The notes beneath the pieces are model-generated. The model made no database searches. It was given only the letters and a program-made list of their open reading frames with translations, and was not told the DNA's origin. Below, piece by piece: positions 5,181 to 8,392 of a stretch of 64,000 nt of DNA. Position 1 is the first letter of the stretch; every line of letters starts with the position of its first letter. Location: contig OY970219.1 of the NCBI GenBank assembly GCA_963713985.1, forward strand, positions 2,313,700 to 2,377,699. Reading direction: 5' to 3'. The translations under genes and the position numbers were made by a program. Origin of the DNA: an uncultured Solirubrobacterales bacterium. Its GTDB lineage: Bacteria; Actinomycetota; Thermoleophilia; Solirubrobacterales; Solirubrobacteraceae.

Positions 5181-5906
5181 TCAGGTCGCCTGTGGCTCGG
5201 CCTCGGCCGGGGGCGGTGTGTCGGTCGAGCCCTTGCGCAGATACAGGAACGTGTAGAGACAGGCGGCGACCGTGGCGCCGAGCACTGGCCCGGCATACCA
5301 GACCCAGCCGTTGCTCCAGTGGTCGCCCACGAGCTGGGGGCCGAAGGCGCGCGAGGGGTTCATCGCCGCGCCGGTGAAGGGGCCGCCGAAGAGCACGTCG
5401 ATCGAGATCGTCAGGCCGATCGCCAGGCCGGCGACGGCGTTGAACGGCCCGCGCGTGTCCACCGCCGCGCCGAAGACGACGAACACGAGGAAGAACGTGA
5501 GGACCGCCTCGAGCAGGAAGCCGGAGCTCGCGTCGACCCCGTGCCCGAGCGCGGGCACCCCGAGCTTGACCGCTTCGGTGGTGGCCCGCGGCAGCAGCTC
5601 CTTGACGAACAGCGCCGCCAGCGCGGCGCCGGCGAACTGCGCGACCCAGTAGACGCCGGCGAGCGCGGGCTTGATCTTGCGGGTGATCAGGAACCCGAAG
5701 GTGATCGCCGGGTTGAAGTGCCCGCCGGAGATGTGCCCCAGCGCGCAGACCATCACGCCGATCGCGAGGCCGTTGGCGATCGCGACGCCGATCAGCGAGG
5801 GGTCGGAGATGGCACCGGACGCCGCGGCCGCGCCGGCGCCGATGAAGGTGAGGGTGAACGCGCCGACCATCTCGGCCACCGCGCGACGGAGGGTATCTTC
5901 GGACAT
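5181..5906 (-). CDS. Aquaporin/MIP family channel
   Basis: SGGHFNPAITFG and GAAMNPSRAFGP (NPA/NPS) with six hydrophobic segments; ATG 5906. Confidence 0.92.
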   Translation of the reverse strand: MSEDTLRRAVAEMVGAFTLTFIGAGAAAASGAISDPSLIGVAIANGLAIGVMVCALGHISGGHFNPAITFGFLITRKIKPALAGVYWVAQFAGAALAALFVKELLPRATTEAVKLGVPALGHGVDASSGFLLEAVLTFFLVFVVFGAAVDTRGPFNAVAGLAIGLTISIDVLFGGPFTGAAMNPSRAFGPQLVGDHWSNGWVWYAGPVLGATVAACLYTFLYLRKGSTDTPPPAEAEPQAT

Positions 5907-5942
5907 GCGCGAAAAGTTACGATCCCGGTCGGACGGATTTAG

Positions 5943-6128
5943 GCCCACGTCGCATGCGACGTGGGCGCCAGGGCCGCATGCGGCCCTGGCTGGAACCCGC
6001 ACATGTGCGGGTTCCCCGAGCGGTGCATGCACCGCTCGGCCGACCGATAGGGGATCAGATGCGATCCCCTATCGGCCAGCGCATGCGCCAACCGGAACAG
6101 CATCGGCGCCGGCCGGAACAGCATCGGC
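5943..6128. repeat. Array of four perfect 24-bp palindromes, a 13-bp hairpin, a 10-bp palindrome and a 16-bp direct repeat
   Basis: 5943-5966 GCCCACGTCGCATGCGACGTGGGC; 5967-5990 GCCAGGGCCGCATGCGGCCCTGGC; 5992-6015 GGAACCCGCACATGTGCGGGTTCC; 6016-6039 CCGAGCGGTGCATGCACCGCTCGG; hairpin 6044-6075; GCGCATGCGC 6079-6088; CCGGAACAGCATCGGC at 6092 and 6113. Confidence 0.95.
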
Positions 6129-6148
6129 CGGGGTCATAGACTCATGGC

Positions 6149-8392
6149 ATGCGCCGCCGCGTCACCTTCTCGCGCAACCTGACGCTGTCGCTCTCGCGGA
6201 CGTGCCAGTGCTACTGCAAGTACTGCGCGTTCGCGACACACACGGCGCACCTGTACGCGCCCGAGGAGGTGCTGGGGATCATCGACGGCGCGGCGCGGCG
6301 GGGGATCAAGGAGCTCCTGGTGCTCACCGGCGAGCGCCCCGAGGTCAACGCGGAGGTGGCGCGGCGCCTCACCGAGTACGGGCACGAGGACTTCACCGCC
6401 TACGTGGCGTGGGCCTGCGAGCGGGCGCTGGAGCGGGGGATCCTGCCGCACACCAACCTCGGCGTCCTCTCCCGGGAGGACCTGGGGCGGCTGCGCGAGG
6501 TGAGCGCCTCGCAGGGGCTGATGCTGGAGTCGATCTCCGAGCGGCTGATGGAGACGGTGCACGCGGGCTCACCCACCAAGCATCCGCAGCGGCGCCTGGA
6601 GGCGATCCGCGCGGCGGGGGAGCTGCGGATCCCGTTCACCTCGGGGATCCTTGTGGGGATCGGCGAGAGCGAGGAGGAGCGCGTCGCCTCCCTGGAGGCG
6701 CTTGCGGCGGTGCACGCCGAGTACGGCCACATCCAGGAGGTGATCCTTCAGAACTTCGTGCCCCATCAGCGCTACTACGGCCAGGAGCCGGCGCAGATCG
6801 CCGATGTGGCGGCGCGGGAGTACTGGCGCACGGGAGTTGCGGACAGCCGGCCGCAGCTGCCGCTGCCCGAGTGGGCGTGTCCGGTGAGCATCGAGGACAT
6901 GAAGCGGCTGATCGCGGAGACCCGGCGGCTGATGCCGGACGTGGGCATCCAGGTGCCCCCCAACCTCGCGGACTGGTGGCCGGAGCTGGTGGCCGCGGGA
7001 GCGACCGACCTGGGCGGGCTTTCGGCCAACGGCGACCACATCTCCCCCGAGCACCCCTTCCCCTCGCCGCATCGGGTGCGCAAGGCTCTGCAGCAGGACG
7101 GCGTGGCGCTGACCGAGCGCCTGTGCGTTTACTCCCGCTACATCGACCCCGAGTGGATCTCCCGGGGGGTGATGGACACGATCAAGGTCAAGTACTGGAG
7201 CTTCATCCCGCGGCGGGGCTCCGGTCGCACCGACCCGGCCGCGAGCGGCGCCCCGCCGATCCGCCCGGACCTGGTCGCCGGGGCGACCGAGCGCGGCCGC
7301 GAGGGGCTGGCGCTGAGTGCAGAGGAGCTGACGGCGATGTTCGCCGAGACGCGGCCGGATGCGATCGAGGAGCTGCGCGCGGCCGCGGACGAGCTGCGGG
7401 CGGAGCTCGCGGGGGAGACGGTGACGTTCGTGGTGAACCGCAACATCAACGTCTCCAACGTCTGCACCGTGGGGTGCGCCTTCTGCGGCTTCGGCCAGGG
7501 CAAGCGCTCCCCCGACGCCTACGAGCACGGCGAGGAGGAGTTCGCGCGCCGGGTGCGCGAGGCGGTGGAGTTCGGGGCCACGGAGCTGTGCATCCAGTCG
7601 GGCATCCACCCGGACTGGAGCCTGGAGGACTACCTGGGGTGGCTGCGCTTCGCCAAGCGCACCGCGGCGGGGGAGGGGTGCGACATCCACCTGCACGCCT
7701 ACAGCCCGATGGAGATCGCGCACATGTGCGACATCTCGGGGGAGCCCCCGGCGGAGGTGTTCGCTCGCCTGCGCGACGCCGGCCTCGGCTCGACCCCGGG
7801 GACGGCGGCGGAGGTGCTGCACGACGGGGTGCGCGAACGGATCAGCCCCAACAAGCTCCCCGTGGCGCGCTGGGTGGAGATCATCGAGGCCTCCCATGCG
7901 GCGGGGCTGCGCTCGACGGCGACGGTGATGTTCGGGCACATCGAGGAGCCCTGGGAGCTGGCCGAGCACATGCGCGTGGTGCGCGAGCTGCAGGAGCGCA
8001 CGGGGGGGATCACCGAGTTCGTGCCCCTCTCCTTCATCCCCTTCCAGACGCTGCTGGGACGCACGCACGGCGTGGAGGAGATATCGCGCGAGGAGAACCT
8101 CAAGCACACCGCCGTCTTCCGTCTGGCGCTGGGGCGCAGCGTGCGCAGCGTGCAGGCCTCGTGGGTGAAGATGGGCCTGGAGGCCGCCACGGAGTCGCTG
8201 CGCTGGGGCGTCAACGACTTGGGGGGGACGTTGATGGAGGAGTCGATCAGCCGCCTCGCGGGCTCCTACCACGGCACGCGCCTGGATCCCGAGCAGCTCG
8301 TGGCCGCCGCGCACGCCGCGGGGCGTCCGGCGGCGGAGCGCACGACGCTGTACGGGATCCGCCGGCGCTACGAGCTGCCGGTGGCGGCGTAG
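6149..8392 (+). CDS. fbiC: FO synthase, fused CofG-CofH (two radical SAM domains)
   Basis: VTFSRNLTLSLSRTCQCYCKYCAF (CofG CxxxCxxC) and VTFVVNRNINVSNVCTVGCAFCGF (CofH); QASWVKMG; GVNDLGGTLMEESISR. Confidence 0.95.
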   Translation: MRRRVTFSRNLTLSLSRTCQCYCKYCAFATHTAHLYAPEEVLGIIDGAARRGIKELLVLTGERPEVNAEVARRLTEYGHEDFTAYVAWACERALERGILPHTNLGVLSREDLGRLREVSASQGLMLESISERLMETVHAGSPTKHPQRRLEAIRAAGELRIPFTSGILVGIGESEEERVASLEALAAVHAEYGHIQEVILQNFVPHQRYYGQEPAQIADVAAREYWRTGVADSRPQLPLPEWACPVSIEDMKRLIAETRRLMPDVGIQVPPNLADWWPELVAAGATDLGGLSANGDHISPEHPFPSPHRVRKALQQDGVALTERLCVYSRYIDPEWISRGVMDTIKVKYWSFIPRRGSGRTDPAASGAPPIRPDLVAGATERGREGLALSAEELTAMFAETRPDAIEELRAAADELRAELAGETVTFVVNRNINVSNVCTVGCAFCGFGQGKRSPDAYEHGEEEFARRVREAVEFGATELCIQSGIHPDWSLEDYLGWLRFAKRTAAGEGCDIHLHAYSPMEIAHMCDISGEPPAEVFARLRDAGLGSTPGTAAEVLHDGVRERISPNKLPVARWVEIIEASHAAGLRSTATVMFGHIEEPWELAEHMRVVRELQERTGGITEFVPLSFIPFQTLLGRTHGVEEISREENLKHTAVFRLALGRSVRSVQASWVKMGLEAATESLRWGVNDLGGTLMEESISRLAGSYHGTRLDPEQLVAAAHAAGRPAAERTTLYGIRRRYELPVAA
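8143..8174 (+). repeat. 32-bp direct repeat, copy 1 (inside fbiC)
   Basis: GCGCAGCGTGCAGGCCTCGTGGGTGAAGATGG, identical to 9722-9753. Confidence 0.9.

Follow-up and report, generated by a model that had tools for sequence, protein, structure and literature searches.

The window, a stretch of 64,000 nucleotides from the chromosome of an uncultured Solirubrobacterales bacterium, contains an aquaporin gene and fbiC in divergent orientation. The spacer between them holds an array of perfect palindromes and several smaller features, as follows.

5181-5906, minus strand: aquaporin, MIP family, start codon at 5906-5904
5914-5919, minus strand: putative -10-like box TAACTT, 7 nt upstream of the aquaporin ATG (context, outside the element)
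5943-5966: unit 1, perfect 24-bp palindrome GCCCACGTCG-CATG-CGACGTGGGC, core CGCATGCG
5967-5990: unit 2, perfect 24-bp palindrome GCCAGGGCCG-CATG-CGGCCCTGGC, alpha-type
5992-6015: unit 3, perfect 24-bp palindrome GGAACCCGCA-CATG-TGCGGGTTCC, core CACATGTG, preceded by the 1-nt spacer T5991
6016-6039: unit 4, perfect 24-bp palindrome CCGAGCGGTG-CATG-CACCGCTCGG, core TGCATGCA
6044-6075: companion hairpin, 13-bp stem (6044-6056 with 6063-6075), loop AGATGC
6072-6095: degenerate terminal (omega-type) unit TCGGCCAGCG-CATG-CGCCAACCGG, 6 of 10 arm pairs left, containing GCGCATGCGC at 6079-6088
6096-6127, plus strand: polar end motif AACAGCATCGG in two copies (6096-6106 and 6117-6127), via a 21-nt tandem duplication
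6137-6142, plus strand: putative -10-like box TAGACT, 6 nt upstream of the fbiC ATG at 6149 (context, outside the element)
6149-8392, plus strand: fbiC, fused radical-SAM FbiC

The four palindromes between 5943 and 6039 abut with gaps of 0, 1 and 0 nt, and their centres are GCATGC in three cases and ACATGT in one. An earlier note on this DNA had described them as equal in length, shared in centre and fully compensated in their arms, and was right on all three points, as it was about the 13-bp hairpin and the GCGCATGCGC that follows it. The direct repeat that it gave as 16 bp does exist, but is 21 nt long (6085-6105 and 6106-6126, 90% identity, with CCGGAACAGCATCGG twice inside). Folded as single-stranded DNA or RNA, the region yields four 10-bp hairpins and the 13-bp hairpin, with z-scores of -8.7 (DNA) and -8.4 (RNA).

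Both -10-like boxes were read from the sequence, and a consensus sigma-70 promoter scan of the spacer gave no match; relatives with an array conserve the string catagactc upstream of fbiC. The two genes are probably leaderless, in agreement with the earlier note. Since the array lies between the two boxes, it would occupy the -35 regions of two divergent promoters and is probably part of neither mRNA. No tie was found between the element and F420 synthesis or water transport, and at this site the array probably regulates neither aquaporin nor fbiC and is tolerated as a passenger. An intrinsic terminator was rejected, as no terminator-like site occurs within 5850-6200 and the array stands between divergent genes. 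So was a known RNA family: the best Rfam 15 score for the array was 27 bits against a 92-bit threshold, for an unrelated miRNA model. The array is not a CRISPR either, as already noted earlier, because its units are not identical and follow each other within 0-1 nt, leaving no spacers.

The aquaporin-fbiC spacer was compared across relatives, as the earlier note had proposed. The same four units are present, base for base, in an independent genome from another sample (G042/L013). In L030 the array is nearly identical, with one mirrored change in four units; the companion hairpin is missing there, and a perfect fifth CATG unit directly next to the others takes the place of that hairpin and the degenerate terminal unit. 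Unit 1 is identical in both relatives. The orthologues of unit 2 (GTCAGGGCCG, GCCATGGCCG and GCCAGGACCG) are all compensated, and those of unit 3 (GGAGCCCGCA in L030, TGAACCCGCA in L019) and unit 4 (CCGAGCGATG, CCGGGCGGTG and CCGGACGGTG) likewise each have the matching 3' arm. The companion hairpin is a different, small hairpin type that also occurs beside arrays A2 and L092, and the degenerate terminal unit has intact counterparts at other loci (CCNNCCGGCG-CATG-CGCCGGNNGG before AACAGC). Overall, the spacer contains an array in about 13 of 80 relatives and lacks one in about 67; it is short and empty in L086 and L020. In some other relatives, the same spacer carries an unrelated, non-palindromic tandem repeat.

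The array at fbiC is one of ten. The home genome (G000; a single contig of 3.76 Mb, 69% G+C) contains 10 dispersed arrays with 41 units in total, 3-5 or more units each, all of them intergenic. A scan of genomes and relatives, which the earlier note had suggested, was run with a pattern of three RCATGY cores at 23-25-nt spacing, using the reversed pattern as control. Within the genus (home genome and 24 congeners), 19 of 25 genomes were positive, with up to 158 matches and about 0 for the control; the highest counts were 158 (G023) and 100 (G003). In the order, 42 of 401 genomes were positive, representing three genera of one family and one genome of a neighbouring family. In a phylum-wide scan of 401 genomes, the family was found in the home genome and in none of the other 400, nine of which had a single non-palindromic chance match each. 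Viral carriage was rejected, as 94 viral contigs match a pattern of four in-phase RCATGY cores and none has palindromic units. Literature searches on Solirubrobacter palindromic repeats, on perfect palindromes in Actinobacteria and on CACATGTG returned nothing relevant. Insertable hairpin arrays of this kind, found in soil Solirubrobacteraceae, thus appear to be a family not described before, and that they are a dispersed, insertable repeat family we regard as close to certain.

Neighbouring genes at independent loci are co-directional in about 17 cases, convergent in about 8 and divergent in about 4, and at about 25 of 29 loci at least one gene reads into the array. The divergent-promoter setting of the copy in the window is therefore the minority case. 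Arrays occur in either orientation relative to transcription.

The palindromes greatly exceed chance, and they do so only around particular centres. Among 8877 genomic CATG sites, half-palindromes of 8 nt occur 5 times, of 9 nt never, and of exactly 12 nt 31 times. When all 256 palindromic 8-mers were tested for eight further perfect pairs, these were found at 18 of 136 sites for CGCATGCG, 14 of 26 for CACATGTG and 2 of 14 for TGCATGCA. The remaining 8-mers had such pairs at two sites or fewer, even the commoner GCGCGCGC (1407 sites, at most 1-2). These three 8-mers are the cores in use. Core statistics were derived from 186 distinct array units, gathered on CATG and pairing alone. All 186 have a purine at position -3 and a pyrimidine at -4, and about 95% have G or C at positions -5 and -6; the outer arm positions hold only 0.1-0.5 bit. 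The conserved core is thus an 8-bp alternating pyrimidine-purine palindrome, YRCATGYR, and the roughly 8 outer bp per arm are nearly free. The arms had earlier been called unrelated, which is correct for the outer positions, not for -3 to -6. Unit centres are spaced by 24 nt in 94 cases, 23 nt in 20 and 25 nt in 23, and some units overrun their neighbours, with half lengths of 16 and 19. Outside arrays, about 1000 RCATGY and about 140 YRCATGYR sites show no symmetry. The pattern is reversed in a second hairpin family of the home genome, where the arms are conserved and the loop varies.

Each array is a polar string in which 2 to 6 or more 24-bp hairpin modules abut. One end consists of the terminal unit CCNNCCGGCG-CATG-CGCCGGNNGG followed by AAC(A/G)GCAY; this ending follows arrays A1, A7, A8, A10, L002, L011, L012, L071, L100, L108 and L111. 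In the window, the polar end is represented by the degenerate unit at 6072-6095 and the duplicated AACAGCATCGG. Left ends are heterogeneous, often of the form ...ATCnnnTGGAA or TTGGAA. Some copies only (A10, A1) have 6-bp ends resembling terminal inverted repeats, GCTGTT...AACAGC. The AACAGC strand is leading in 9 of 11 orientable arrays, too few to decide on a replication-strand bias, and local GC skew was too noisy for a strand test in G023 (71% correct at 20 kb).

Unit types recur across loci in a fixed order. An alpha-type unit (GGCAGGGCCG and variants) is found in many arrays, alpha-beta pairs occur in A8, A9 and A10, and the order GGCAGSGCC - CGGGGCCGC - CCGGTCGGCG followed by AAC is found in both A7 and A1. 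Local tandem duplication was rejected as the source of units, because adjacent units are no more alike (3.16 of 8 positions) than units from different arrays (3.21 of 8). As unit order recurs and units within an array are no more alike, whole multi-unit elements have been copied between loci, and arrays have not grown by recent local duplication. Acquisition of arms from elsewhere in the genome, in the manner of tags or spacers, was also rejected: 14-mers of arm plus CATG had no surplus of genomic matches over a reversed control.

Arms change in a mirrored fashion. The home genome has 34 CATG-centred units without arm mismatch; its roughly 400 stem pairs include no internal mismatch and no G.T pair, and one-mismatch units inside arrays are affected at the outermost pair only, with nothing between them and the random background. 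A wider set of about 194 in-phase units, drawn from many genomes, has about 5 mismatches in about 1900 stem pairs (about 0.3%). Eight units have a mutated centre (CACG, CGTG, CTTG, CCTG or CAAG), always in the middle two bases; six of the eight have perfect arms and two have one mismatch each, one of these at the outermost pair. The central AT is kept in 96% of units. Minimum-spanning counts over the arrays give dozens of mirrored pair changes. For the fbiC locus the count is 26 transitions and 18 transversions, which is an upper estimate since some non-orthologous units were linked. Compensated transversions cannot pass through a wobble intermediate. At a background divergence of about 3-4%, independent double hits predict far fewer than one compensated pair, and neutral single hits predict tens of mismatches. 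The arms show the reverse, with many compensated pairs and few mismatches. Mirrored change that includes transversions and multi-base changes and leaves few single-arm intermediates is the pattern expected of a repeat maintained by template switching, and the CATG arms show it.

Change is also unevenly distributed. The closest relative of the home genome, G042 (about 96% identity, flanks 94-99% identical), shares nine arrays with it. In five of these, 0 of 409 nt have changed, versus 16 of 494 in the adjacent intergenic flank (3.2%), a rate at which 13 changes would be expected (P about 2e-6). The other four differ by whole-unit gains or losses and by several mirrored changes each. Array change is thus over-dispersed, with five arrays frozen and four heavily changed.

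Presence and absence at orthologous sites provide evidence for insertion. Six arrays are found in G042 only, and array A8 of the home genome has no counterpart at the syntenic hisA-hisF site of G042. The atpD-atpC spacer has a 3-unit array in 7 of 30 genomes of the genus, and in most genomes it is empty and compact, reading aaataATGgcc. Two insertion sites have clean junctions. At L111, the sequence cacggcggcg-tcatcc of the home genome is broken at the hyphen in G042 by about 210 bp ending in ...GAACAGCAGCC, and at L115 attga-aacc is similarly broken in G042 by GCTGTT and six units. There is no target duplication at either of these filled/empty junctions; both have possible microhomology of 3-4 nt at one side. 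Because clean junctions number only two, the ends of the element and its target are weakly defined. A8 was not used as a filled/empty pair, as hisA there is a recombined allele (85% identity, versus 98% for hisF). The boundary of the A8 array coincides with this identity switch, so homologous recombination of the flanks also carries arrays from one strain to another. In distant relatives, allele transfer may account for some arrays at shared sites, in place of insertion.

A mobilising enzyme was searched for with several families. Y1 transposases (PF01797) are missing from the home genome and 24 of 25 congeners (25 of 26 genus genomes), including all those with high copy numbers, and six known control genomes were matched. 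TnpB was not found in the genus with positive controls. PF04986 (the IS91-type Y2 HUH transposase) gave no match, the control genomes likewise being without one. The only multi-copy genes of the home genome are IS701-like and IS630-like transposases, which were rejected as partners because their ends are unrelated to the arrays. IS110 was rejected since it is uncorrelated with the arrays, being missing from the array-rich G012, G013 and G017 and abundant in the array-free G014 and G024. An autonomous copy, that is, a gene between two arrays, was not found in the home genome, in G042 or in the first 2.2 Mb of G023. A link to restriction-modification was also rejected: outside arrays RCATGY is not avoided (observed/expected 0.81-0.84, mid-range of the 64 hexamer palindromes), which makes a cognate restriction system unlikely.

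Among known systems, the closest in genomic behaviour are the REP/BIME clusters that RAYT (TnpA-REP) mobilises in Enterobacteria, Pseudomonas and Stenotrophomonas (PMC2817692, PMC3333891). A REP unit combines a GT(A/G)G head with an imperfect palindrome that has a conserved stem and is oriented, alternating in BIMEs (PMC2817692). Like these, the CATG arrays are short, GC-rich hairpin repeats in intergenic head-to-tail clusters of regular spacing, spread over the chromosome, often located just past the end of a gene or within an operon, variably present at orthologous sites, and lineage-specific with a copy number that varies widely between relatives; the ten arrays of the home genome, the spacing of 24 ± 1 nt and the restriction to Solirubrobacteraceae all follow the REP pattern. 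Unlike REPs, the CATG units are perfect, non-oriented and headless, with free stems and with conservation confined to the 8-bp tip; unlike REP/BIME-RAYT systems, no Y1 enzyme accompanies them and no array pair flanks a gene in the genomes searched. The arrays are therefore REP-like in genomic behaviour, but lack two defining REP features, a cognate RAYT and a headed, imperfect, oriented unit. The view that they are unlike REP arrays, put forward in the earlier note, holds for the perfect palindromes, the missing GTAG head and the missing RAYT, and fails for their intergenic, dispersed, lineage-restricted and present/absent distribution.

MITEs and other non-autonomous hairpin elements (Correia/NEMIS, RUP, ERIC) are similarly small, non-coding, insertable, intergenic and occasionally co-transcribed, and the short terminal inverted repeats of A10 and A1 add to the likeness. 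They differ from the CATG arrays in that these have no target-site duplication at the two clean junctions, no related autonomous IS and a body of modular tandem palindromes, and in that the multi-copy transposases present (IS701-like, IS630-like, IS110) either end in unrelated sequence or fail to co-vary with the arrays. The combination of terminal inverted repeat, target-site duplication and autonomous IS was thus not found, nor was the TnpA(Y1) or TnpB expected of IS200/IS605-derived (PATE) elements. In attC sites and the origin hairpins of HUH enzymes, a small conserved part is recognised on a folded single strand and the stem is free to co-vary, a principle that the CATG units would share. 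However, attC sites are imperfect, have extrahelical bases and flank gene cassettes, HUH origins are single sites beside a rep gene, neither is arranged in tandem without spacers, and no gene for a matching enzyme turned up here.

With moderate confidence, we favour a composite explanation, namely a lineage-restricted, non-coding, insertable REP/BIME-like DNA hairpin element whose arms are kept by templated copying and whose core is read by a factor. As for the first of these processes, we lean slightly towards hairpin-templated copying as the source of arm symmetry. With the DNA folded into a hairpin, one arm would serve again and again as template for the other (replication template switching, or quasipalindrome correction), and a mutation in a single arm would be either erased or mirrored in one step. 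Such copying would leave no intermediates and no wobble pairs, would produce compensated transversions, and would not correct mutations of the centre, which is unpaired in the hairpin. Of the three options offered in the earlier note, an unknown palindrome-generating or templated fold-back process comes closest to the evidence. Template switching is known to make quasipalindromes perfect (PMC7202029), and by multibase compensatory changes it can both give rise to stems and preserve them (PMC8794818). The likeness to quasipalindrome correction (the Ripley model; E. coli thyA and lacZ QP reporters, PMC7202029; rRNA stems, PMC8794818) lies in the one-step conversion of an imperfect into a perfect repeat and in multibase "compensatory" changes without wobble intermediates, as in the CATG arms. 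The process is known, however, as a sporadic event at single sites and not as the standing upkeep of a repeat family.

Generic template switching also leaves it unexplained why perfection is restricted to YRCATGYR-centred palindromes, and neutral mutation with symmetrisation predicts a steady rate of compensated change, with which the over-dispersed data disagree. The core and the intact hairpins would hence be held by selection, since only YRCATGYR-centred units are mirrored and intact arrays are better conserved than the neighbouring spacer. Selection on the tip would imply recognition by some factor or a structural role. Most simply, a trans-acting factor or a DNA-structural transition may read the hairpin tip, the structural option being nucleation of a hairpin or cruciform at a flexible CATG centre. 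DNA is at its most flexible at CA/TG steps, and tracts of alternating pyrimidine and purine favour non-B transitions. Spread would proceed without a REP-type Y1 transposase, through another enzyme or through copying-in by a repair or template-switch route, as target duplication is lacking at the clean junctions and possible microhomology of 3-4 nt is seen at one side of each.

A more specific possibility, which we hold only tentatively and consider unlikely, is that an enzyme other than Y1/RAYT recognises the YR-CATG-YR tip of a folded DNA hairpin, templates arm from arm and copies whole module strings to new sites without target duplication.

Two further explanations are, in our judgement, improbable. 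The first is that the units are functional RNA hairpins (mRNA 3'-end protectors, terminators, intercistronic processing or stability elements, or a YR-CAUG-YR protein sponge), with pairing selected on the RNA. Many copies do lie in operons or just after stop codons (atpD-atpC, hisA-hisF, A1, A3, A9), a gene reads into most independent loci, and a palindromic unit gives the same hairpin from either direction of transcription. A conserved tip on a free stem is typical of protein-recognised RNA hairpins, and both the constraint on intact arrays (0/409 versus 16/494) and the RNA folding z-score would be in line with an RNA function. However, G.U-compatible pairs are lacking among the stem pairs of the home genome, mismatches amount to about 0.3% overall, and compensated transversions are common; the copy in the window and those at three other loci lie between divergent genes, the former between two -10 boxes; there is no U-tract and no Rfam match, and presence at any one locus is patchy. 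The absence of wobble pairs could itself be a by-product of DNA-level symmetrisation, so that it weakens this explanation without disproving it. The locus-specific form proposed in the earlier note, a multi-hairpin sRNA or protein sponge, found no support: the array is one of 10 dispersed copies, most relatives lack it in this spacer, arrays lie in either orientation to transcription, and their symmetry is strictly Watson-Crick without G.T pairs.

The second, to which we give similarly little credence, is a protein-binding DNA array, in which a dimeric protein reads the duplex YRCATGYR every 24 bp and palindromes grow outward by template switching until they reach a neighbour. Such growth would account for half lengths of 12 nt and for units that abut exactly, and the units that overrun their neighbours, the 24 ± 1 nt spacing and the 0-1 nt gaps fit with it; conservation of the core is moreover that of a duplex palindrome and extends to the central AT, which would be unpaired in a hairpin (96% of units). 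Template switching has been reported to homogenise and expand inverted repeats (PMC13100816). Outward growth is difficult to reconcile with the RCATGY and YRCATGYR sites outside arrays, which have no symmetry, and with arms that have been inherited across loci as homologous unit types and did not arise anew at each site. Arrays are also found in all intergenic contexts without a link to particular genes, and no candidate protein was identified.

A classical REP/BIME mobilised by RAYT (a Y1 HUH transposase), or a PATE/MITE derived from IS200/IS605, is very improbable: the intergenic, GC-rich, clustered, lineage-specific hairpins and the range from 0 to more than 150 pattern matches between related genomes would suit it, but PF01797 and TnpB are missing, the palindromes are perfect and have neither the GT(A/G)G head nor the orientation of REPs (PMC2817692), and no gene flanked by two arrays was seen in the genomes searched. 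An assembly or sequencing artefact (fold-back chimeras, or long-read errors at a methylated CATG motif) has a negligible probability even though the genome is a long-read metagenome assembly, since the four-unit array recurs unchanged in the independent genome, several projects, some with short-read k141 assemblies, have between them yielded dozens of genomes with the family, and orthologous arrays differ in evolutionarily sensible, compensated ways.

The composite explanation has several implications. Next to any gene, the arrays resemble regulatory palindromes of that gene, which makes them a hazard for annotation, and as they are hypervariable between strains at about 96% identity, they are possible strain markers. 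They also show the mirrored (concerted) evolution of palindrome arms with unusual clarity in a natural setting: the stems number in the hundreds, intermediates are all but absent and compensated transversions are frequent. The case is relevant to the old question of how stems keep pairing, and to how much of apparent RNA covariation template switching can produce at the DNA level in the absence of RNA selection; a tool that takes covariation as proof of RNA function would be misled by CATG arrays. If a tip-recognising enzyme does act on them, Thermoleophilia would have an undescribed pathway of single-strand DNA transposition or repair, with the arrays as its footprint. For this deep-branching, mostly uncultured actinobacterial lineage, the arrays would constitute a REP/BIME-like class without the enzyme credited with making REPs, so there would have to be another route to such elements.

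The aquaporin and fbiC genes, which diverge from the spacer holding the window's array of four abutting 24-bp CATG-centred palindromes, both look leaderless. The motifs ahead of their start codons are as follows:

TAACTT, window 5904-5919 region, 7 nt ahead of the aquaporin ATG
TAGACT, window 6137-6151 region, 6 nt ahead of the fbiC ATG

Upstream of fbiC, array-free relatives have TACACT instead of TAGACT. At four loci in relatives (L014, L015, L016 and L018), fbiC is preceded by a GATCGGCGGCYGCCCCTYGRAC-like tandem repeat of about 25 nt that is not palindromic (locus coordinates about 2330-2490). This repeat occupies the same aquaporin-fbiC spacer as the CATG array of other relatives. The spacer looks like a hot spot of small-repeat insertion.

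CATG arrays are also accompanied by hairpins of other types. The hairpin beside the window array belongs to a small CGATCGG/CGATAGG-type family adjoining arrays, with these members:

window 6044-6075, hairpin with a 13-bp stem, 3' of unit 4
genome about 896545-896583, left of array A2
locus L092 of a relative

The 13-bp-stem hairpin is absent from locus L030, which has a fifth CATG unit in its place. A longer hairpin module, CCGAAGCCGG...CCCCGTTTCGGCCAG, moves together with CATG arrays and is also found alone. Its sites are as follows:

genome about 3473400-3473560, at array A10
loci L111 and L112 of relatives
locus L133, the atpD-atpC spacer of genome G009

The A10 composite of CATG array and module is bordered by GCTGTT...AACAGC, resembling short terminal inverted repeats.

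A second dispersed hairpin family, of about 15 copies, was observed in the same genome outside the window. Its design is opposite to that of the CATG arrays, as the arms are conserved (GGGGGAGGG / CCCTCCCCC) and the 4-nt loop is variable (CCTG, CAGG, CTTG, CTGG). Genome coordinates of copies, besides others, are:

840952/841044/841136
1119821
1354661
1485346/1485423
1776976
2098207
3423180

At 1354661 the hairpin is accompanied by a 28-bp duplication of the end of the upstream gene, and the matching site of the closest relative, G042, holds a six-unit CATG array.

Transposase genes and a small gene pair, probably mobile, were also seen in the genome. The pair is encoded by a 2.1-kb segment beyond the window (2066716-2068832), which stands in place of a spacer that has a CATG array in G042. 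One product is a DUF5131 protein (Pfam E = 5e-98); the other, of 455 aa, has no Pfam match. A composite of two transposase genes, IS701-like (DDE_5) and IS630-like (DDE_3 plus HTH), is present in 100% identical copies:

571214-573815
712450-715050
2480466-2483066
2747930-2753456, tandemly reiterated

The ends of this composite are unrelated to CATG arrays.

In the phylum scan, the control with the pattern reversed (YGTACR, spaced at 23-25 nt) gave 3-10 matches per genome in genus g130, with genomes of 7-10 Mb (for example G615, G713 and G469), and about 0 elsewhere. The g130 matches could be a different periodic repeat.

In the window's genome, dnaA and the skew minimum place the replication origin near 1.18 Mb, and the terminus lies near 3.05 Mb. 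The strand bearing the polar-end AACAGC motif is the leading strand in 9 of 11 orientable arrays, a weak hint, from one genome, of a strand bias of CATG arrays.

Directly left of array A8, at the hisA-hisF site, lies a decayed fifth unit, GACGATGCC-ATGT-GGCATCGTC. Comparison of genome positions 2962172-2962549 with locus L146 of G042 gave an identity of only 85% for hisA and of 98% for the adjacent hisF. Since this switch falls at A8, the array either marks a recombination tract or travelled with one.
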